Virus record (IMG/VR): IMGVR_UViG_3300028887_000077
Coordinates: 86,028-150,027 of that record
From: a virus
Taxonomy: Duplodnaviria > Caudoviricetes
Direction: 5' to 3' (one strand)
Length of the DNA stretch: 64,000 nt
The notes under the pieces are model-generated. The model was not told the DNA's origin and ran no database searches. It saw nothing but the letters and a program-made list of their open reading frames with translations. The translations under genes and the position numbers were made by a program. Each line of letters opens with the position of its first letter. Position 1 is the stretch's first letter. Shown here piece after piece: positions 2,315 to 42,114 of this stretch.

Positions 2315-2559
2315 TCTATCCGTTCCACGTTTATCGCGCCTATACCGGGGACGATTTCTTCTGGGTCGCAGCGTCCGACGTTGTTCTCGGTTGTGTCGGC
2401 CAGGGCCGCACGGCTCGCGCAGCGATCAGGGAATTGCGTGGGAATGAGAGGGCGTGGATCAAATTCGCCAAGTCCTACAAGGACGAGATCCGCATCCCCA
2501 CAGTTCCGATCGTCAGTTTGGACGACGATAGTGTCCTTCAGGCGAACCCAAAAATTTAA
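2311..2559 (+). CDS. HicB-like antitoxin domain protein (orphan)
   Basis: MIYPF...FWVA...GCVGQGRTARAAIREL...W...IP matches the HicB N-terminal pattern (GCxxQGxTxxEA); no HTH/RHH and no adjacent hicA. Confidence 0.75.
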   Translation: MIYPFHVYRAYTGDDFFWVAASDVVLGCVGQGRTARAAIRELRGNERAWIKFAKSYKDEIRIPTVPIVSLDDDSVLQANPKI

Positions 2560-2566
2560 TAAGTAA

Positions 2567-2592
2567 GAGGGAGGGCTTCGGCCCTCTTTTTT
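2567..2592 (+). terminator. intrinsic terminator
   Basis: GAGGGC-TTCG-GCCCTC + T6. Confidence 0.9.
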
Positions 2593-3045
2593 ATGCCCTC
2601 TCCCACACACACTCGCCAGGCGCCGTCTGTTAAATGCATAATACGCATAAACATGCAAATATATTGTATGGCATCGCAGGGTATAACGCCGCACCGTTAT
2701 AAAACGCCCCTCCCTACTAAAAAAAATAGCCCCCGCTTAAAAAAATATGGCCCATTCGGATAAATATGAAATATTCGTGAACAGATTTTTGGGTCTATTT
2801 TAAGTAGAGGACGGTGGTCCACGGTCATCCACGGTCATCCAGCGGAGTTTTACCCGGGTTTTGGGGAAATGAAAAATTCCACCGGAATTTTTAGGGTGGG
2901 TGTGTGTGGGGATGGTGGGTGGGTGTGAGTAAAAAAATGGGTGGGTTAATATAAAAAATAGTTGCCCGGTGAATTAATGGGTGGGCTGTGCGAAATAATG
3001 GGTTGGGTGTGTGTGGTGTGGATGATTAGTCATCCATCACACAAT
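2593..3045. other. non-coding convergence region with C-rich/G-rich strand asymmetry (candidate genome terminus or packaging region)
   Basis: No credible ORF; left half C-runs plus A-tracts, right half GGGT/GTGT-rich; lies between convergent transcription units. Confidence 0.5.
2811..2840. repeat. 3x tandem 10-mer
   Basis: ACGGTGGTCC ACGGTCATCC ACGGTCATCC. Confidence 0.9.
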
Positions 3046-3049
3046 TACC

Positions 3050-3127
3050 TCATTTCCTTATTCTTCCGCAGGAAATAATAAAGAAGATAAAGGCAATTAT
3101 GACTGCAGCAACCATTAGAATTGCCAT
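3050..3127 (-). CDS. 25-aa single-TM peptide
   Basis: AAGGAGG SD; MAILMVAAVIIAFIFFIISCGRIRK; below the ORF-track cutoff. Confidence 0.65.
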   Translation of the reverse strand: MAILMVAAVIIAFIFFIISCGRIRK

Positions 3128-3145
3128 TTTATCGCCTCCTTTTTT

Positions 3146-3406
3146 TTATTTTGACCCCATATATAGATATATTGCAATTAAAACTGCTCCACATATAGGG
3201 CAAAACAAAACTCCGCACAGCAAATAAAACCAGAAGTCTTCTTTGCCGGCGCCCATAATTGCCCACATTCCACCCGAACATGCGGTTGCAACCAGAGCGC
3301 TAACAATGCTTCTTTTGAGTTTGCTGCGTTTGTCCATAAGCGCATAAGCGCAAAGGAATGGAATTGCCCAAAGAAGCGATATGGCAATCAGTGGTGTTAC
3401 AATCAT
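3146..3406 (-). CDS. small membrane protein
   Basis: GGAGGTG SD; about 3 hydrophobic helices. Confidence 0.75.
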   Translation of the reverse strand: MIVTPLIAISLLWAIPFLCAYALMDKRSKLKRSIVSALVATACSGGMWAIMGAGKEDFWFYLLCGVLFCPICGAVLIAIYLYMGSK

Positions 3407-4102
3407 TCACATCACCTCCTTTCCATATCTTTCGACGATCGCCTTCATCGCGTCGGGGACGTACTGGTATTCGTCCGCAGCATAAACTCCAACGAGTCGT
3501 TTGACATACTTTTCTGCCTCCTTCGGAACGCGACCGTGCTCAAATCTCTCGGTGGGTGTTCCGAGAATATACCCGAGACGCAAAGGAGCTCCGCAAACGC
3601 CGCACGTAAAGAGATGCGGATGCTCGACAGACCTGCATACGCGGAATTGTTTGTAGGTCTTTGAGCACCTCGTGCAACAAAGTGTATACGGCTGCTCGTT
3701 CGGCTTTGTCGTCAGGACTCCGCAACGCGTTACGGTAATCCCCCAGCGTTTGCCAATCTTGTCGCCAGCACGTTTCCACTTGGCGCCGTGGTGATCTCTC
3801 GGTTCGACTGCATGAGCAACCTCGTGAATGAGCGTATCGCGTATTTCCTTTGATGATCGCGAATACATGCACCTGTTGATGCAGATTGCGCTGAGAACCT
3901 TTCCACACACCACATCGTGACGACACTGGCCGAGAATGCGATGCGCGTGATTCTCGTAAAGAGTCAGGTCGAGGTTCGCCGTGGAGTTGGGATAGATATC
4001 CTCACACACACGAAGCACCTCATCCCACATCTTCAGGGTTTTTGCATCCTTGCACTTCTTCCATGTGCGCGCGATAAGGTTGTGCTTTTTTTGTTTTGCC
4101 AT
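3407..4102 (-). CDS. SprT-like zinc metalloprotease domain protein
   Basis: DTLIHEVAH(A) HExxH, then HHGAKWK and CxxC...CxxCG Zn ribbon. Confidence 0.85.
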   Translation of the reverse strand: MAKQKKHNLIARTWKKCKDAKTLKMWDEVLRVCEDIYPNSTANLDLTLYENHAHRILGQCRHDVVCGKVLSAICINRCMYSRSSKEIRDTLIHEVAHAVEPRDHHGAKWKRAGDKIGKRWGITVTRCGVLTTKPNEQPYTLCCTRCSKTYKQFRVCRSVEHPHLFTCGVCGAPLRLGYILGTPTERFEHGRVPKEAEKYVKRLVGVYAADEYQYVPDAMKAIVERYGKEVM

Positions 4103-4581
4103 CAACTTTCACCCCGATCTTCATCGGTGATATCGCCGATCCTCGTGATGTTCTCGATCTTGATGTCGAACGTGTCGACGGCGGTTTTGTTCCAGTAGCT
4201 CGGAGGTGTGACCGCCTTCACGCTTTCAACATCGACAATGTTTCCGTCGATCTTGTAGACAGTCTTTTGGTTCGGGATCTTCGACGTCTGTACATTCAGA
4301 TACTTGACTCCACTGGAAAGAGCTTCTTTGATGTAGTGCTCGTATCCAGGGACCCATTTCCACCACGCCTTGTACTCCTTGGGAGGATTCTCTTCGCGTC
4401 TCTTGATAACGTCGGCGATGTGCGAGTACTGGCAGCCAAGACGAACGGTCATCTGCACCTCTTTGGTGATATTGAGGTCTTTGTAGGCTGCAGCGGGCTT
4501 GACTTCCGTGGTGTAGTCAATCCGGACAAACCTCCCTGATGCGGTGGACTTGATTGCCTTTTGAACATACGTGTACTTCAT
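4102..4581 (-). CDS. hypothetical protein
   Basis: AAAGGAG SD, 159 aa, strong codon bias. Confidence 0.8.
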   Translation of the reverse strand: MKYTYVQKAIKSTASGRFVRIDYTTEVKPAAAYKDLNITKEVQMTVRLGCQYSHIADVIKRREENPPKEYKAWWKWVPGYEHYIKEALSSGVKYLNVQTSKIPNQKTVYKIDGNIVDVESVKAVTPPSYWNKTAVDTFDIKIENITRIGDITDEDRGES

Positions 4582-4611
4582 GACTTTATCTCCTTTCTTG
4601 TTTTGTTTGTT

Positions 4612-5202
4612 TTACCAGCCGCCTTGACATTCGTTTGCGAAGCGAACGGTCTTGGTGTATTCCTTCTTGGTCATATATGGCTTCTCGCCTTTGCGCTTAG
4701 CTTCTTTGACGAGCTTCTTTATGCGCAGAATGATGTCTTTGTCGAGCTCGTCGGGCGATTGCTGCCTTCTTCTTTGCGAGTGATAGAAATTTTCCCAGTA
4801 GACACCGCCAACACCACGGATGCGTCGTGAAATGATCGCATATTTGAACGCATAGTAAATGCGCTTGCGAACTGCGACAAACGCTCGTTTGATTCTGCTG
4901 ATTGTGTCGAGTTTTGCGCACTTTTTGCATTCTTGATATGAAATAGAGTCCCATCCGTCGATGGTGTAGAAGTAATGCGTGCTAACGTAAAGCGTCTTAA
5001 ACTCTTTGTGGCAGCTTTCGCAATTGCACTTGTACCCCATTTTGGTCTTGACCAGTTGTTCGTCGGCCGGGATATCGAGAGCATAAAAATCAAGCTCACC
5101 ATAGTCGTTTTCGGGACCTTGCAGAATGGGAAGCTGTGCGATTTCCGCAGTGGTCATATCGGAGTAGTCGGTGCGCATTTTGCGCTTTTTGGTTTTTGCC
5201 AT
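4612..5202 (-). CDS. hypothetical protein with CxxC pairs
   Basis: GGAGGTG SD; CESC...CKKC. Confidence 0.75.
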   Translation of the reverse strand: MAKTKKRKMRTDYSDMTTAEIAQLPILQGPENDYGELDFYALDIPADEQLVKTKMGYKCNCESCHKEFKTLYVSTHYFYTIDGWDSISYQECKKCAKLDTISRIKRAFVAVRKRIYYAFKYAIISRRIRGVGGVYWENFYHSQRRRQQSPDELDKDIILRIKKLVKEAKRKGEKPYMTKKEYTKTVRFANECQGGW

Positions 5203-5203
5203 A

Positions 5204-5491
5204 TTATTCACCTCCTTTCTCTTTTGCTTCCTTTTTAACTTCGGCAATCAACCCGATACGACCACTGTAAATGCAGTCGATGGCACGTTCGCAATCGTTC
5301 TCATTCATTTGCCAAATTCGACGAAGACCAACGTAGTGTTTGTACTCATTGGTTTCGGGGGATTCGCATAACTCAACGATCTTCTTTTCGGCCTTGTTTC
5401 GCTCGTCTTTGCAGTGTATCGAATGTGCAATGAGAATATGAAGAATATTGGTAAGATCGTCGGTTTCGTGTCTCTCTTTCTCTTCGCACAT
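5204..5491 (-). CDS. hypothetical protein
   Basis: GGAGGTG SD, coupled. Confidence 0.75.
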   Translation of the reverse strand: MCEEKERHETDDLTNILHILIAHSIHCKDERNKAEKKIVELCESPETNEYKHYVGLRRIWQMNENDCERAIDCIYSGRIGLIAEVKKEAKEKGGE

Positions 5492-5492
5492 A

Positions 5493-5828
5493 TTACTTCA
5501 CCTCCTTTCCATTGACAGACAACACCTCGAAGACGAAGTTGTAAACACACCATCCAAACTCGTCGGACAGCATGTCGCACACGCGTTCGTTGGCTTCGTC
5601 CCATCCTTCCCAGGTGTCTTCGACGTTAATAGTGTATTCGCGTTCTCTGGGAAGGTCTTGCACGATTTTCGCCGCCTTGTCGTCTCCGAGCTCTTCGTCA
5701 CTGGTGTCCCACCAGATTTTGCTTACTCTGACGACGGCTTCGACAGTTTTTCCGGTGTAGTTCGCATGCGTGATTTCGTTAAACTCGTCGCACCATTCGG
5801 GGTTGTAAATGCTCTTTTTGTTGCTCAT
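5493..5828 (-). CDS. acidic hypothetical protein
   Basis: AAAGGAGG SD; D/E-rich. Confidence 0.75.
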   Translation of the reverse strand: MSNKKSIYNPEWCDEFNEITHANYTGKTVEAVVRVSKIWWDTSDEELGDDKAAKIVQDLPREREYTINVEDTWEGWDEANERVCDMLSDEFGWCVYNFVFEVLSVNGKEVK

Positions 5829-5842
5829 GATCTCGCCTCCTT

Positions 5843-6019
5843 TCATTCATAGTTCCATTCGGTGTTGCATCTGAGGTCGCCGTTGAGCATATTGTCAAGA
5901 AAATCGTCGATATACTCTTCTTTGTCTCTGTCTGGCGGAACGGGTATCATCATGTATGCGGACGGTTTCGTGTTGTTCCCAAAATACAAACCGATTTTGA
6001 CAAACTTGAAACTATCCAT
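5843..6019 (-). CDS. 58-aa hypothetical protein
   Basis: AAAGGAGG SD; MDSFKFVKIGLYFG...WNYE; fills the gap exactly. Confidence 0.7.
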   Translation of the reverse strand: MDSFKFVKIGLYFGNNTKPSAYMMIPVPPDRDKEEYIDDFLDNMLNGDLRCNTEWNYE

Positions 6020-6020
6020 A

Positions 6021-6767
6021 TCAATTGCCTCCTTTCTTGATTCTCTTTCCGGAATGATCGTACACCGCGACGACGTGCCCGTTGTTTTTGCGCCAGCAGA
6101 TTCCGCACTTGTCGCACGTCACTCCGGTCTCGCTTCCGTCTTTGGCAATGGCGGGACAGTGCGTGACCTTTTCGAGCTCGGGGTTCGTGTGGTCGTCGTA
6201 AACAAACCGATTAAGCCCATGCAGATCGTATCCGGCCGTGTTCCCGTTCCATTCGGAAATATTCACGACGAGATTTTCGGGAAACTTCCCGTTCTCTTTG
6301 AGATATTTCTCGATGAACGAGAACCTTTTCGTGTAGAAGTAGAAGTGGACGTTCGGAAGGTTTTTTGCGAGACCGACCATATGCTCGAGGTACGAGTAAG
6401 ACTCGATCTCTCCCGAACTGTGGTATCGCAGAAGTTTGACGTCATGTTTCGTCAATTCTTCTTTGATCTGCCGGAAAGCGCCGTCGAGATCGTTGCGAAC
6501 GATCAGCGTGTTATTTCCCCACGCGGGAATGTTGACGTTGTGGTGACACTGTGCAGACCGGATGGCATAGCAGTAGCGCTCGCATCCATCGCAACAGCCG
6601 GTGCAGGTGCCAACGACGTTCGTGAGGTCCCCCTTGTCCTTCGTGGAGATAGGTTTGTCTCCTGGGAGCAGGTTAAAGTTGTAGATCTTTCCGATCTTCC
6701 TGTTCCCCTTCGAGAGCTTGATGCGCATCCCATTGGTGTAATGAAGGTCATACGGTGTTTTTGACAT
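6021..6767 (-). CDS. GP88-like (radical-SAM-like, Cys-rich) phage protein
   Basis: KLSKGNRKIG, CTGCCDGCERYCYA, RYHSSGE, YFYTK, CP...CDKCGICW...H motifs of the gene product 88 family. Confidence 0.8.
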   Translation of the reverse strand: MSKTPYDLHYTNGMRIKLSKGNRKIGKIYNFNLLPGDKPISTKDKGDLTNVVGTCTGCCDGCERYCYAIRSAQCHHNVNIPAWGNNTLIVRNDLDGAFRQIKEELTKHDVKLLRYHSSGEIESYSYLEHMVGLAKNLPNVHFYFYTKRFSFIEKYLKENGKFPENLVVNISEWNGNTAGYDLHGLNRFVYDDHTNPELEKVTHCPAIAKDGSETGVTCDKCGICWRKNNGHVVAVYDHSGKRIKKGGN

Positions 6768-34344: not shown

Positions 34345-35025
34345 TTATCCGTTTGGATTAAAATCTTTGCCGTCAAAACCACTGTATTCAAACTGAAACG
34401 ATCCAGATACGGTTTTGCGAATATCGTCTTCGCTCGCCTGTGAGGCGCCAATAATAGACAACAAATCTTTCATGCCATCTTTAGACAAATCACAGGGATT
34501 ACGATTAATCTTAAGGTTGCGCCCACACGGTTTAAATTCAGTACAGACACCTCCGCGATATTCGCAGAGCGGAACCAGAAGTCCGTCAAATTCCGGACAG
34601 ACCTCGATTACCTGCCTGCACATTTCGGCCACGACTTCTCGTGTTTCTTTTGACGCTTGATTGCACAGGCGTTTATGTGCTATTGTCATAAGCTCTTCGG
34701 CGTTCATATACCACATCATGTCAACCGGTGCGTCCTGCGGAGCTTTGCGGCGGTCATAATCAGACTGCCTGTCGTTTCGCTGTGACTTAACAAATGGTGT
34801 CGCATGAACATGTCTGACCAAATGCGTTGACACCCAGTACGGCACGTCCGTGAGTCTAAAACAGAAATTCAGCGTCCGAATCGGGCTATGGCACGCAGCC
34901 AACAGCCGCTTCTTCCACTCGAGATCCGGTGGAGCAACCGGGGTTTTACCGATTGTTACGAGTGTACACTGTTTTGCTAACATCCAATCCTCATTGGTTG
35001 GATATTTAACAATTTCTACATTCAT
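34345..35025 (-). CDS. thyX: FAD-dependent thymidylate synthase (ThyX family)
   Basis: HSPIR...HLVRH......SQR...N..EL.....RLC.QAS.ETR...P.LVP.C motifs. Confidence 0.85.
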   Translation of the reverse strand: MNVEIVKYPTNEDWMLAKQCTLVTIGKTPVAPPDLEWKKRLLAACHSPIRTLNFCFRLTDVPYWVSTHLVRHVHATPFVKSQRNDRQSDYDRRKAPQDAPVDMMWYMNAEELMTIAHKRLCNQASKETREVVAEMCRQVIEVCPEFDGLLVPLCEYRGGVCTEFKPCGRNLKINRNPCDLSKDGMKDLLSIIGASQASEDDIRKTVSGSFQFEYSGFDGKDFNPNG

Positions 35026-35267: not shown

Positions 35268-36535
35268 TTATGTTTTCCGGGGCCTATTTTTTATTGCCAA
35301 TTCTGCACGAATATCTTCGACCATTTTTGCGAAGTCTTCGTCAGATATAATCTCCATTACCGGCGACTCGTATGGCAGATAATGTCCTTCGGTTGGTTCA
35401 TCCTTCTTCTCTGGTGGCTCCAAAGAAACCGGAGATAGAACATAATATCTACCAAGGAATTCAACAGCATTCGGATCGTCTGCCGTTGACTCCACGGGTG
35501 CGATCGGCATCTTTTGAGGAACACACGAAAGTATTTCCTCGTCTAAAAGCACCCACGCAAAGTCCCAGTTAAACTTCGTGTATGATTGTGAAAGCGCATA
35601 TATGTACGTGAGTCCGTCAAGAGTGTTGAGTTTAAGGTCCGCGTATTGTGCACGTATTTTTTCCGTCATAGAGTCGATCGCAGCGAACCTGAAGTCTTTA
35701 TACTCATCAGGATCAGCCCCGTCGAACACGCGAGAAACCGTTTGTAGATTTTTGTTCGAACTGAATGTTCGGTATATATCTCTCATCTTATGCAGCACAT
35801 CCGGATCGATTTTAAACGAATCAAGATCGTGGTGTGGAAGCATAGATATATTATGCTTATGGTAGTTGATGTCAAAATCGACAGATTCAAATTCTTTGCA
35901 TATTAGATTCATCGTACAATCGCTATTAATTACCGGTGAGAACCGCCTGTATCTTCTGATAAAAGTCCGTTCGAGTTCTGTTTTCTGCTCTTTCATTAAG
36001 AGCTTTTTAATTGGCATGCGGAACATGCACTTTGATGTCTCATTATACTTAGACTCATAACGCTTATACTTGGCATTAAGTTCTTGGTACAAGTACCGGA
36101 AGAAATATGGCTTCTTCGCTAGAACTAATGAGTTATGATAATATTTCGCTTGTCGTTCTGCGTCTGTATCGTCAGGAAGAATTTTTTGGATCTTCAACCA
36201 CTCGTCTTTTGGCGGGCCCTTTGCGTCGACACCCTTGATTCGGTCGATCTCTTGCCCGTTAATTTCTCTCAGGAGCTTTTTACGCAACAGTAATTCGTTG
36301 TCCTGCGGGGAGTCCTGTGCGAAGAGAGGGCGCATCGCCTCTATAATTGTCGAATAGTTAGAATATGTGCCGACCTTCGTACCAAACCCTCTGATGTCCG
36401 TTTCGACAAAGTTTCTGTGGCAAATTCGCTGAGATGGGACCGCTTCTTTGTCATATGAAATCGGATTCGTTACGTCCTTCATCGAGCCCTTTAATAAAAC
36501 CTCATTGTCAGAGCTCATAACTAAATCGCCATCAA
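35268..36535 (-). CDS. exon 2 of YonO-like single-subunit (RdRP-fold) RNA polymerase
   Basis: Begins TT-GAT-GGC-GAT (F|DGD); includes GTYSN, Q.IDRIKG and KPYFFRY.Y motifs. Confidence 0.9.
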
Positions 36536-36852
36536 CCAAAACACCCTCGGTTTCCCGATATTTATTAGGGGAGTAGACTATCTCTTCGGCTTACACCCTT
36601 TTAACAAATGTAAGTCGCTCGGCACTTTGGAAATACGAGTTTCACGCATTCCCTACTCTACTCGCTTCTTTTGCGTTGTGTTTCTCAACGCATATGCTTT
36701 CGATAGTCGTTACACCTTCTCAATTAAGAGCTTGGCACGGTATTATCATTTTACAAATTTCACCGTTAGCCGAACCGTTGGTTCGACACCCTGCTTTTGC
36801 AGGTTCACCGAGTTTACTACCGGTCGTCGCCGACCGGCGGACCCTGATCACT
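36536..36852 (-). ncRNA. group I self-splicing intron, 317 nt, no ORF
   Basis: 5' exon ends in U (GACU) pairing with GGUC (P1); P2 hairpin 36819-36838; P3 CUCGG/CCGAG; P7 GACUAUC (36702-36708)/GAUAGUC (36576-36582); P9 with GAAA loop; terminal G; removal restores the frame and DFDGD. Confidence 0.93.
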
Positions 36853-38527
36853 AGTCACTGTCTGAATGTCTTAATGTACTCAGATCATAAATCGAGTAAA
36901 TAATGCCGCTGTGTATGTGGGAGTACCACTTTCGTGCTTCGTCGCTTGAATAGAGCGTACAGTGATTCACCTCGTGCTTATCCAGCAGCGGCGAACGACA
37001 AAGCACAATCTCGTCTCCCGGACTTTTCCTCCGTTGCCAGAACTCCGAATAAATATGCTCACCGGGGATTTCTCCGTCCACCGGAAGCCGTAACGCAGCC
37101 CGGCACTGTGCGATCGGGTCAGAGATCATGAACGAGTAATTCCCTCTCACCCATATCTTACCGATTTTCGTTCGGTTAATAGTCTCTACAATATTTCGAT
37201 ATATTTTTTTCTGGACATATGCGTCCTTTAAGAAGTCTGGGTCTTTTACAACCGCCTTCATAGCGAGGTTTTGTGCTCGCACAAACACATCGTTGTATGT
37301 GACCAGGCGGTCTGAGGAAAACCCTCCGAGAGAATAAAGCAACGCATACACGTCATCGCCAGAACATATCTTATTGACCCAGTCGATTGTTGGGGCAACA
37401 AGTCGCTTAATATCATCCTTATTAATATTAAGCACTTGGATGATCTGGTAGTTTGCGAGAACATACTCGTCGTCTATGGCCCGATTATATCTAGAAACAC
37501 CCCAGCCGATGTTGTACTTGGTGGTGTATCTCAAATAGTCCTCATAAGACGAATAGTACTTGTACTGCTTAAACTGACTTTCTGAAAGCAGAACGTCGAT
37601 CTCGTCCACGTTGTGTGGGTTTCCCCATCGGTCGTATATGATTGATATGCCGTGCTCTTTGGCGTATGCACGAAAATCAAACGGTACCAGATTACCTTTT
37701 GTCCATATTGTTCGGACGACAAAGCTTGACGGGACATATTTAAGAGACATGTTTTCAGACCATCTCTTGGCCATATCCGGCGAAATAAGCCCCTGCCCGT
37801 CAAAGCTGTTCATCTTAATATCTACGACGCGCTCTTCTACAAGCTTTTTCGTCTTCGTTGTTCCGTCTGCAAGCACAACATCTTTGTTGACGATCCAGTC
37901 GAGCTTCTGATCCTTTAGCGTAGTAAATGCATCCGGGATAACACAAACCCTTGGTGTATCAACCCACATAACAGAGGATGTCGCCAGCGAAAAATACGCA
38001 GAAAGCTTCGCTATGTTAATTTCCTTAACGCGGTCCGTAAGCCCACACATCAATCGCTTTTGAAGCTCTTGATAGATCTCTGCGTTACAGAAAATAACGC
38101 AATTTCTTCGTATATTCCCGGCCGAGGCGCTAAATCTAACATACCGAACACCGTTTAAGTAAAACCCGTTCTTTGCCAGTCTTCTGTAGTCGGATTTTTT
38201 AAACACTTCAACGATCGCAAAGTCTTTTACATAGAGCGTCTTTGTCAAAAAGCTCCAATAAACCTTTGCGTTTTCGTTGTCCCCATCTCGTTTTGCTCTT
38301 CGTAAATTTTGCCTGATCTTTTGAACAAGAGCGAAGATTTCTTTCGGTGATCGATTGTCGCCTCTGATTTTTCGGGCTTGTGCAAATGCGATGTTGTCGC
38401 CGCACGAAACAATGCTGTTTGTTGGCGCCGCTTTCTGCAGCCCGAAACCCTGAATGTTTAAGTTGTTCTGACAGATGAAAGTAGAAGACAGTTTAACAAT
38501 CTGGTATAAAACCTGTTCTTGTATCAC
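36853..38527 (-). CDS. exon 1 of YonO-like single-subunit (RdRP-fold) RNA polymerase; spliced product ~980 aa
   Basis: KLSAYFSL, FDGQGLISP, R....KG, SQFK, CRSP and ...DSD|FDGD motifs of the cellular-RdRP/SPbeta YonO family. Confidence 0.9.
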
Positions 38528-38542
38528 CTTATAGTCTTCTCC

Positions 38543-39112
38543 TTAGTTGCTGTGAAAAAGTATTTCCTCTCCCATTGGAGACAAAAGAAATTTAGTGATC
38601 GTAGCAACATCCGTCTCCAACACGGACAAATTAAATTCGTTGTTAATAGTAAAATCTGCTTTATAATCGTTCATATCGACCTCAGACGCATGCTTCTTTT
38701 GTTCCTCTGTTAATCCGTTGTCGAAATTCGGCCGGACCACACGACAAACCGTGTATGTAAAATCCTTAAATCCGTTAGCCTCATTTTTATATCGACAATC
38801 TGGTATTAACATATAGTCTGCGTCAGAACCAAGAGCGATCTCACGACAGATATTTACCCAGCACATCGGATTGTTTTTTCGATAAGCCGTTCCTACATTT
38901 TGAAGAATGGTTCTTCCAACAGGTCCCTTATCGCCTACAATCCATCCGTAAGATGTGCTGCATAGCATTTTTAGTGGATCTGCAAAATGGTAAATAATAA
39001 CGCTTTTCCCGGCCTCTTCGAGAAACTTTTTCATAAACGAAGCGGTCGTGTCTTTTCCATGGCGAGCAGAGCCAGATAATAAAATGATTTTAGTATTTTT
39101 CATATGTGTCAA
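38543..39112 (-). CDS. deoxynucleoside monophosphate kinase
   Basis: P-loop GSARHGKDT, FADPLK, R..LQ..GT, IPDCRY.NE, H.SE. Confidence 0.85.
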   Translation of the reverse strand: MTHMKNTKIILLSGSARHGKDTTASFMKKFLEEAGKSVIIYHFADPLKMLCSTSYGWIVGDKGPVGRTILQNVGTAYRKNNPMCWVNICREIALGSDADYMLIPDCRYKNEANGFKDFTYTVCRVVRPNFDNGLTEEQKKHASEVDMNDYKADFTINNEFNLSVLETDVATITKFLLSPMGEEILFHSN

Positions 39113-39716
39113 CCCGCATTAGCTCTTTTTCCACAAGTGCGAACTCTAAAATTCTAATGATTTCTTTCCAGGTGTCAACAATATATAAATTATCCAAAAC
39201 GGCGGTCTGTTTGTTCCACTGTCTATCTATTCCGCGTTTATATAAAATCTTACAGTTCGCGTTCGTAGTTGCAAGTGCGTCAAACCGGTCGTCGATTTGG
39301 ATTCCGTTTGTCATATTAATATGTGATTTGTCGTAACAATTTACTTCTTTTGATAAAGCACATGGCAGGAAGGTTGCTTTTGAGAAATGCTTTTTTAAGA
39401 ACGCTTCCTTCCTTTTTAAATTAAGCGGTATGCCCTTCGAGACAAAAACAAAGTTGAAATGCCGTTTGTGATCGTGATAAAAACGCTTAAAGTCCGGATC
39501 AATCTGAACAATATCCCAAAACCTCTCCGATGCGAAGATTTCGTTTACGTTATCGAAATTGGCCCCGGAATAGATCGACCGGTATCCCCAGTCGGTAACG
39601 TCCTTTACGGTTTTATTTGTTCCGTATTTTTCGTTCATGATTTGAACGACGGCTTCGGACGAATGAAGCACTGTGTCGTCGACGTCTAAAAATAATGTAA
39701 TTTTTTCTTTGCCCAT
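39090..39716 (-). CDS. HAD-family 5'(3')-deoxyribonucleotidase-like protein
   Basis: LFLDVDDTV motif I; DKS...IQIDDR motif IV. Confidence 0.8.
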   Translation of the reverse strand: MGKEKITLFLDVDDTVLHSSEAVVQIMNEKYGTNKTVKDVTDWGYRSIYSGANFDNVNEIFASERFWDIVQIDPDFKRFYHDHKRHFNFVFVSKGIPLNLKRKEAFLKKHFSKATFLPCALSKEVNCYDKSHINMTNGIQIDDRFDALATTNANCKILYKRGIDRQWNKQTAVLDNLYIVDTWKEIIRILEFALVEKELMRVDTYEKY

Positions 39717-41820: not shown

Positions 41821-41896
41821 GCTTCTTTAGCTCAGTTGGCAGAGCAACGGTCTGTTAAACCGTGGGTCGTAGGTCCGAGCCCTACAGGAAGCGCCA
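41821..41896 (+). tRNA. trnN: tRNA-Asn(GTT)
   Basis: Cloverleaf: GCTTCTT/AGGAAGC acceptor, ACGGT-ctGTTaa-ACCGT anticodon arm, G73, encoded CCA; T-loop TCCGAGC. Confidence 0.92.
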
Positions 41897-42114
41897 GATA
41901 GAACCAGACAAGCCTCCTAACAATGCTCAAATCGTCTGGTCTTTCACCAATTACCCCAAAGGCCAAGGGGTCGGTTGGGTTTGCCCTCACTCGGTGGTAC
42001 CGATCAGCTGTCAAACCTCTGTACACGGGTCGCTCCCGGTGGTATATGTTCCCAAAGCAGCAGAAAGCCATCGTATTTGTAAAAAGGAATTATAGGATAG
42101 AAAAGGAGAGTTAT

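Follow-up and report, generated by a model that had tools for sequence, protein, structure and literature searches.

The RNA polymerase YonO of phage SPbeta relies on a triad of aspartates, the change of which to asparagines abolishes RNA extension, and, among the sources consulted, DNA-dependent RNA synthesis and late-gene transcription are known for SPbeta YonO only (Forrest et al. 2017, PMC5467207). As described by Birkholz et al. (Science 2024), phage PhiPA3 carries a group I intron with the HNH endonuclease gp210 in its virion RNA polymerase subunit gene gp211/209, and gp210 nicks the intron-less gene of phage PhiKZ beside conserved aspartate codons and lowers the PhiKZ yield in mixed infection (PMC11620839); among the sources consulted, this intron is the closest studied case to the locus described here. 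We analyzed a 64,000-nt stretch of viral DNA (Caudoviricetes), hereafter the window, which is the right-hand 64 kb of the 150,027-bp record IMGVR_UViG_3300028887_000077, a record with direct terminal repeats that is rated a complete genome. On its minus strand, at 35268-38527, the window carries a YonO-like RNA polymerase gene, the catalytic D-x-D-G-D codons of which are interrupted by what its sequence identifies as a group I intron. No mention of an intron in a YonO-type gene was found in the literature searched, with subscription journals and supplements outside its scope.

A polymerase gene divided within its catalytic motif

The gene appears on the minus strand as two open reading frames (ORFs), one of 558 aa (36851..38527), which terminates with D-S-D and a TAG codon (36853-36851), and one of 423 aa (35268..36539), which begins 311 nt after the end of the first. 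A scripted join of 38527..36853 to 36535..35268 gave 2943 nt in frame, encoding 980 aa with zero internal stops, and residues 556-562 of the joined frame read D-S-D-F-D-G-D, the D-x-D-G-D motif being complete only in this frame. Exon 1 (36853..38527, minus strand) supplies residues 1-558, ending with D556-S-D558, and the first base of codon 559, a U; exon 2 (35268..36535, minus strand) supplies the last two bases of the F559 codon, D560-G-D562 and the remainder of the protein to the stop codon at 35270-35268, with the 3′ part of the catalytic motif at 36525..36535 (minus strand; TT of F559, GAT for D560, GGC for G561 and GAT for D562). The 317-nt insert (36536..36852, minus strand), with A36852 as its first base and G36536 as its last, thus falls between the first and second bases of the Phe codon in D-F-D-G-D and divides the triad, with D558 in exon 1 and D560 and D562 in exon 2. 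The TAG straddles the 5′ junction, with its T in exon 1 and its A and G in the intron, and the longest ORF inside the insert is 43 aa, with no homing endonuclease gene. A sequence-only reading made earlier had placed the junction at exactly these positions, and its remarks on the in-frame TAG and on an insert devoid of an ORF were likewise borne out.

Exon 1 matched the Pfam RNA-dependent RNA polymerase (RdRP) family PF05183 with 27.8 bits (cut-off 23.8; E value, 1.4e-6). In PHROG 8308 (E value, 6.8e-80), exon 1 corresponds to profile positions 75-550 and exon 2 to positions 551-725, so the two exons abut in the profile. A tblastn search matched 40 phage records, namely, SPbeta yonO and 39 others, with 26% identity to SPbeta yonO over residues 83-488 (E value, 2e-18 for SPBc2 yonO and 7e-22 for the best SPbeta-like record), and a PDB sequence search with exon 1 returned a single irrelevant match (E value, 0.009). 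When aligned with uninterrupted homologues, the join coincides with DFDGD in phages PMBT24 and TR-TP1 and with DNDGD in YonO. A protein search retrieved 706 relatives, and D556, D558, D560, G561 and D562 were invariant across 40 full-length ones. The intron-less relative P0002 (975 aa) gave a single unbroken alignment through the join, with 81.7% identity over 978 columns. Structure prediction was run on P0002 as a stand-in for the joined protein of the window, and the AlphaFold2 (AF2) model (pLDDT, 86.6; pTM, 0.81) retrieved plant RDR2 and fungal QDE-1 as the top Foldseek matches (E values, 1e-18 to 4e-14; TM, 0.38-0.47), followed by phage P74 gp62, P32 gp64 and the crAss phi14:2 polymerase gp66. 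The two ORFs are the halves of one YonO/RdRP-type two-barrel polymerase gene, and sequence and model together place its predicted single-chain product in the YonO/eukaryotic-RdRP branch of the two-barrel polymerases, in agreement with the type of enzyme that had been named at the outset. We also observed that the uninterrupted homologue of Bacillus phage BUCT082 (L001 2492-5266) reads D-F-D-Y-D, with a Gly-to-Tyr change in the metal-binding loop.

The strongest evidence for the intron borders and for the joined product came from alleles that have no intron. We aligned to the gene the contigs of four DNA runs (X2-X5) of gut metagenomes, which came from three studies. In X2, X3 and X5, one contig each spans 35268-36533 and 36876-38527 with 25 other letters in between, and in X4 the same 25 letters are present as a loose contig end. 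The contigs thus skip 342 nt and carry 25 letters instead, and the difference, 317 nt, is exactly the intron length. On the gene strand, these letters encode T-L-R-H-S-D-S-D-F, the same residues as those of the ligated exons in the window. The intron-less sibling genes, found in three runs, are about 96% identical to the window gene and constitute independent DNA-level evidence for both borders and product. A comparison with intron-less homologues had been proposed as a check, and both these contigs and P0002, colinear across the join, gave the expected result.

Structure and distribution of the group I intron

The Rfam group I family RF00028 matched 36899-36554 with 27.6 bits and an E value of 6.7e-5 in an 801-nt search; the J6/7-P7, P4-P6 and P7′ boxes fit well, and P1, P3 and the peripheral helices fit poorly. 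The intron strand folds better than 100 of 100 shuffled sequences (z = -3.8). Its 5′ neighbor is U36853 and its final base is G36536, and a terminal G is also found in five related introns. An internal guide sequence (36840..36848, minus strand) has nine bases complementary to nine of the ligated-exon junction, including two G.U pairs: its bases 36843-36840 would pair with the last four bases of exon 1 (36856-36853) to form P1, with U36853.G36843 at the splice site, and its bases 36848-36844 would pair with the first five bases of exon 2 (36535-36531) to form P10. We did not adopt an RNAalifold pairing of the exon end with 36847-36840, which leaves the splice-site U unpaired.

Downstream of the guide sequence lies the P2 hairpin (36820..36837, minus strand), which has 7 bp and a GNRA loop, with five of the seven pairs changed on both sides relative to the introns of three related viral contigs (L011, L012 and L014). 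The 5′ strand of P3 (36807..36812, minus strand) pairs with 36623-36618 and is unchanged in these four homologous introns, and the unrelated intron of another related contig, L010, by eye, has a different, fully complementary hexamer pair at the corresponding positions. The P3 5′ strand of the Rfam alignment (36775-36769) was rejected; it forms a covarying local hairpin and cannot pair in L011 or L010. Between the accepted P3 5′ strand and J3/4, two extra hairpins are predicted (36803-36790 and 36787-36769, minus strand), the second of which is replaced in L010 by a longer hairpin of different sequence. To our knowledge, no helices stand at this place in canonical group I introns, the junction there being short.

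The P4-P5-P6 domain (36719..36766, minus strand) is the best-aligned part of the Rfam match, and its P5 loop (about 36753-36747) is the site of an endonuclease-type ORF in relatives. The 5′ strand of P7 (36702..36708, minus strand) pairs over 7 bp with 36582-36576 and matches the J6/7-P7 and P7′ boxes of Rfam; six of these seven pairs never vary among the four introns and one varies on one side only, such that P7 shows no compensatory change. Between P7 and the P3 3′ strand are the hairpins P7.1 and P7.2 (36692-36672 and 36653-36629, minus strand), followed by the P3 3′ strand (36623-36618) and P8 (36617-36587, minus strand). Next comes a 45-nt 3′ module (36543..36587, minus strand) comprising J8/7, the P7 3′ strand and a P9 hairpin with a GAAA loop. 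This module is nearly invariant among many phage introns, and the P9 hairpin is invariant in the four introns, so that covariation speaks neither for nor against it.

Covariation was assessed with the window intron and those of L011, L012 and L014; the P5-loop insert was left out, and the 5′ and 3′ parts were aligned separately. We found 26 pairs with compensatory change, of which 5 are in P2, 1 in P5, 2 in P6, 5 in P7.1, 4 in P7.2, 3 in P8 and 3 in each extra hairpin. On the grounds of covariation, guide pairing, the terminal G and exact absence from the intron-less alleles, the 317-nt insert is identified as a group I intron, as the sequence-only reading had claimed. Of the helices listed there, P1 with its U.G pair, P2 and P7 stood, as did the terminal G; P3 is present with a 5′ strand other than that of Rfam, and P9 amounts to an invariant hairpin only. 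P7.1 and P7.2 hairpins that separate P7 from the P3 3′ strand are a hallmark of subgroup IA, in which IA2 introns otherwise follow the canonical helix order. By this definition, the two hairpins suggest a subgroup IA intron, and the two covarying hairpins between P3 and J3/4 fall outside the standard scheme.

A megablast search with the 3′ module alone matched 198 phage records at 88-100% identity, including phages of Staphylococcus, Listeria, Enterococcus, Bacillus and Lactobacillus and, in all, at least six host genera. In Enterococcus phage EH93P1 and its relatives, a 100% identical module lies inside the terminase large subunit gene. At megablast sensitivity, the rest of the introns carrying the module gave no match to the window intron. 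The module occurs once in the genome of this phage; 39 nt of it (intron 272-310) recur unchanged in the related contig L013, the intron of which otherwise differs, and the region is 87.5% alike over 48 nt in L010.

Related introns and the weighing of explanations

The DNA-level comparison covered five viral loci and seven named phages. Exon 1 is 67-68% identical to the corresponding part of the five related viral contigs, and all five are interrupted, by inserts that have a NUMOD3 ORF, a LAGLIDADG ORF or none: four (L011-L014) at the window site, with inserts of 255-1047 nt, and one (L010) 5 nt downstream, with an insert of 1174 nt between D-F-D and G-D that carries a LAGLIDADG_3 ORF. The introns of L011, L012 and L014 are 74-79% identical to that of the window over both ends and have 630-730 extra bases in the P5 loop, where there is an ORF that has a NUMOD3 motif and whose start, by eye, is of the GIY-YIG type. 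The guide sequences of L013 and L010 fit their own exon ends. Two of the named phages are interrupted at the downstream site. The insert of the fecal phage MT835481 (L004) is about 936 nt with a NUMOD4+HNH_3 ORF, and as it scored only 14.2 bits (E value, 0.96) against RF00028, its status as an intron rests on position and the HNH ORF; that of Clostridium phage c-st (AP008983) is without an ORF and emerged, with 25.4 bits, only when the search was confined to its 561-nt region; a scan that pooled four loci (E value, ≤0.1) gave zero Rfam matches. The polymerase genes of BUCT082, PMBT24, SPBc2, Perkons and TR-TP1 are uninterrupted.

At the protein level, the census covered the best 120 cluster representatives among the 706 relatives. 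Seventy-seven are at least 900 aa long with a complete D-x-D-G-D (67 DFDGD, 7 DWDGD, 2 DYDGD and 1 DHDGD), and two of 660-706 aa also have the motif. The other 41, all of 524-595 aa, break off inside the motif, 27 of them after D-x-D and 14 after D-x-D-F-D (three assigned by eye); some of these short relatives may be cut by contig ends, and their last residues still place the ends at the motif. The database protein P0001 (573 aa, 13 member sequences) is 99% identical to exon 1 and reads 15 residues past D-S-D that differ from the window, so in a near-identical phage the 5′ end of the intron differs slightly and lacks the TAG.

Between the window and its X2 sibling, 9 of the 25 exon bases at the intron site differ, as against 113 of 2918 elsewhere in the exons (binomial, 2e-7), and all nine differences are synonymous. 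In the 23 bases 5′ of the window intron, L012 and L014 agree with the window at 22, even though protein identity to them is only 67%; nucleotide identity to these two contigs is 88-96% in the first 48 nt and falls to 46-71% further out. This pattern is what co-conversion of the exon flanks during homing may have left. Selection on intron-less alleles to escape an endonuclease may also contribute to the site differences, and the two would look alike here.

Taken together, we consider it very probable that the insert is an ordinary selfish homing intron in a conserved polymerase target, leaving the enzyme dependent on splicing with no regulatory purpose. The pattern is that of selfish homing because intron-less siblings exist, relatives carry endonuclease ORFs, and a second site is used 5 nt away. 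In this 150-kb phage from a ruminant-gut-type metagenome, transcription would proceed through the intron, and the guide sequence would align both exon ends through P1, with its U.G pair, and P10. An external guanosine would then attack after U36853, and the freed exon end would attack after the terminal G36536; the ligated mRNA alone would encode the 980-aa enzyme with all three metal-binding aspartates, and ribosomes on unspliced RNA would halt at the TAG. The window intron would be a homing element with no endonuclease gene, either through loss or because it never carried one, and its copy could persist passively, be moved by the endonucleases of related introns or be an uncuttable allele. 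Its place in the catalytic codons would follow from two circumstances, namely, that no target is more conserved and that imprecise deletion there would kill the gene; in a review of phage introns, homing elements are described as favoring conserved active-site codons for the same two reasons, a stable target and the lethality of imprecise loss to the gene (PMC12908238).

Several points weigh against this explanation. The RF00028 score misses the family cut-off, a gathering score of 50 bits, and a whole-window Rfam scan at the gathering threshold found a tRNA and an abiF RNA only and missed the intron, such that the covariance-model check that had been proposed came out positive by E value and negative by threshold. 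The compensatory changes were drawn from four sequences, three of them mutually close, and represent few independent events. The accepted P3 differs from that of Rfam and two non-canonical hairpins follow it, so splicing activity is not to be taken for granted. None of 22 runs with this DNA is on record as RNA, and we infer splicing from the features above. The window copy has no endonuclease gene, so its mobility rests on its relatives. Splicing efficiency may also modulate the level of the enzyme.

The last point leads to the claim of the sequence-only reading that splicing gates the transcription program of the phage, that is, that the intron was recruited so that the amount or timing of the polymerase depends on splicing (e.g., on the level of GTP, on translation or on the conditions of folding). 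With the triad divided, no active enzyme can arise unless the RNA is spliced; an ORF-less intron persists in near-identical copies such as P0001, and its helices are maintained by compensatory change. However, a selfish intron would have to keep its helices just as much if the phage needs the interrupted gene, phages about 96% identical manage without the intron, and more than half of the relatives in the census (77 of 120) are uninterrupted. Different introns with three endonuclease-type ORFs at two sites 5 nt apart are what independent invasions would be expected to produce, and no sensor-like element was seen in the intron. We thus regard a regulatory gate as improbable, and rate-limiting or controlled splicing is unsupported. 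Rarer still, in our estimate, is the chance that the intron is a decayed, non-splicing one and the polymerase a pseudogene in this phage. The sub-threshold Rfam score, the missing endonuclease gene, the atypical hairpins between P3 and P4 and the lack of runs on record as RNA would fit such decay, but the exons are open over 980 codons, all nine site differences from the intron-less sibling are synonymous, the core helices are still paired through 26 double changes, the guide sequence still fits the ends of the two exons, and the genome record is complete, with terminal repeats.

It is least credible of all, and indeed barely conceivable, that the two ORFs are translated separately into a two-chain polymerase with the insert as a spacer. 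The second ORF does open at a TTG (36539) with GAGGG 4 nt before it within a purine-rich stretch, and split polymerase subunits are known in jumbo phages (PMC2919709). Yet the break lies inside a five-residue metal-binding loop rather than at a domain border, the purine-rich stretch belongs to the 3′ module that is conserved in introns of unrelated genes, and the intron-less alleles encode one chain.

It is possible, though we hold it less likely than not, that the catalytic codons are a battleground of co-infecting gut phages and that the ORF-less intron is an immunity allele breaking up the target. The endonuclease introns (NUMOD3/GIY-YIG-like, LAGLIDADG and HNH, at sites 5 nt apart) would then cut intron-less alleles, in the manner of PhiPA3 gp210 acting on PhiKZ. 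The nine synonymous changes of the intron-less sibling would in that case mark a target recoded to resist cleavage or else a co-conversion scar. If this were true, the intron state would decide the winner of a mixed infection.

A second group I intron candidate was observed in the same phage genome outside the window, at 79153-79348 (plus strand; L008 1501-1696), with 39.1 bits and an E value of 4e-8 against RF00028 in a 1.5-kb search. An HNH endonuclease ORF (L008 1073-1600; HNH_3, PHROG 14913) overlaps the 5′ part of this candidate, and the ORFs flanking it had no PHROG match.

Surrounding genes and comparison with known systems

The genes flanking the polymerase on the minus strand (34345-35025, 38543-39112 and 39090-39716) belong to nucleotide metabolism, with matches to a ThyX-type thymidylate synthase (Thy1; E value, 7e-14), a deoxynucleotide monophosphate kinase (E value, 1.6e-13) and, weakly, a 5′-deoxynucleotidase (NT5C; 22.5 bits, below the cut-off). 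No HU-like gene was seen adjoining the window polymerase; in SPbeta, BUCT082, PMBT24, Perkons and TR-TP1, one follows the yonO homologue. Elsewhere in the window (41821-41940, plus strand), a match to the abiF RNA motif RF03085 (49.9 bits; gathering score, 37) lies 10 nt past a tRNA (64.5 bits). The motif takes its name from an abortive-infection system, and here it is found in the genome of a phage, immediately after a tRNA.

The intron reveals neither a new kind of element nor a new mode of regulation; it appears to be a mobile intron of the sort that phages commonly carry in this gene family. Its consequence for annotation is practical, since gene callers split this polymerase, and censuses and alignments of two-barrel polymerases should join such fragments. 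The locus also offers a natural series (no intron, an ORF-less intron, three endonuclease types and two sites 5 nt apart) that could be useful for the study of homing, co-conversion and possible phage-phage interference at the active site of a polymerase.

Compared with SPbeta YonO, the window protein is likewise a predicted single-chain, two-barrel polymerase with an aspartate triad and a motif that aligns, but it is a distant relative of 980 aa, whereas SPbeta yonO is uninterrupted and encodes 839 aa. Phage c-st, a model toxin-converting phage, carries a similar polymerase split unannotated, which agrees, along with the 41 truncated relatives, with the earlier expectation that standard annotation would report fragments. 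Its CST179 is a 558-aa N-terminal ORF ending with D-M-D and annotated "YonO-homolog, N-ter only," and one review counts this fragment among the YonO-like enzymes, with both barrels present (PMC7824862). The continuation G-D-A-V-I-S... lies in frame upstream of the separately annotated 354-aa CST178 ("hypothetical protein"), with an insert of roughly 320 nt between the two and no intron marked in the record. CST179 and CST178 (L003, AP008983 163456-169961; locus 2414-6347) look like the exons of one YonO-like gene. The c-st site differs in being 5 nt downstream (D-x-D|G-D), and beyond the core boxes its intron bears no relation in sequence to that of the window; a BLASTN match of a Bacillus cereus-group intron in phage c-st has been listed with the host gene unnamed (PMC2504315). 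Behind them lies CST177 ("YonO-homolog, C-ter only"), an ORF of its own, and ORFs of 240-278 aa likewise come after the polymerase genes of BUCT082 and PMBT24; the counterpart of the C-terminal part of SPbeta YonO may be a separate protein in these three phages.

Introns of subgroup IA are found in phages of Gram-positive hosts (of the Twort, SPO1, phage K and A511 types) and in T4 (td and nrdB). The window intron resembles them in P7.1 and P7.2, in its placement at conserved codons of an essential gene, in the endonuclease ORFs that its relatives carry in a peripheral loop and in the 45-nt 3′ module found in the 198 phage records, and differs from them in the two hairpins between the P3 5′ strand and J3/4 and in the class of its host gene, which the literature searched does not describe for such introns.

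The case of PhiPA3 is alike in that a group I intron lies in the RNA polymerase gene of the phage itself, by conserved aspartate codons, and that the gene is annotated as fragments. A related phage in both cases has an intron-less homologue, which for PhiPA3 is the target of the endonuclease. PhiPA3 differs in being a nucleus-forming jumbo phage in which the interrupted gene encodes one subunit (beta-like) of a multisubunit enzyme and the intron holds an active nicking endonuclease, whereas the window gene encodes a predicted single-chain YonO-like enzyme, is interrupted in a beta-prime-type D-x-D-G-D loop and has an intron with no endonuclease gene.

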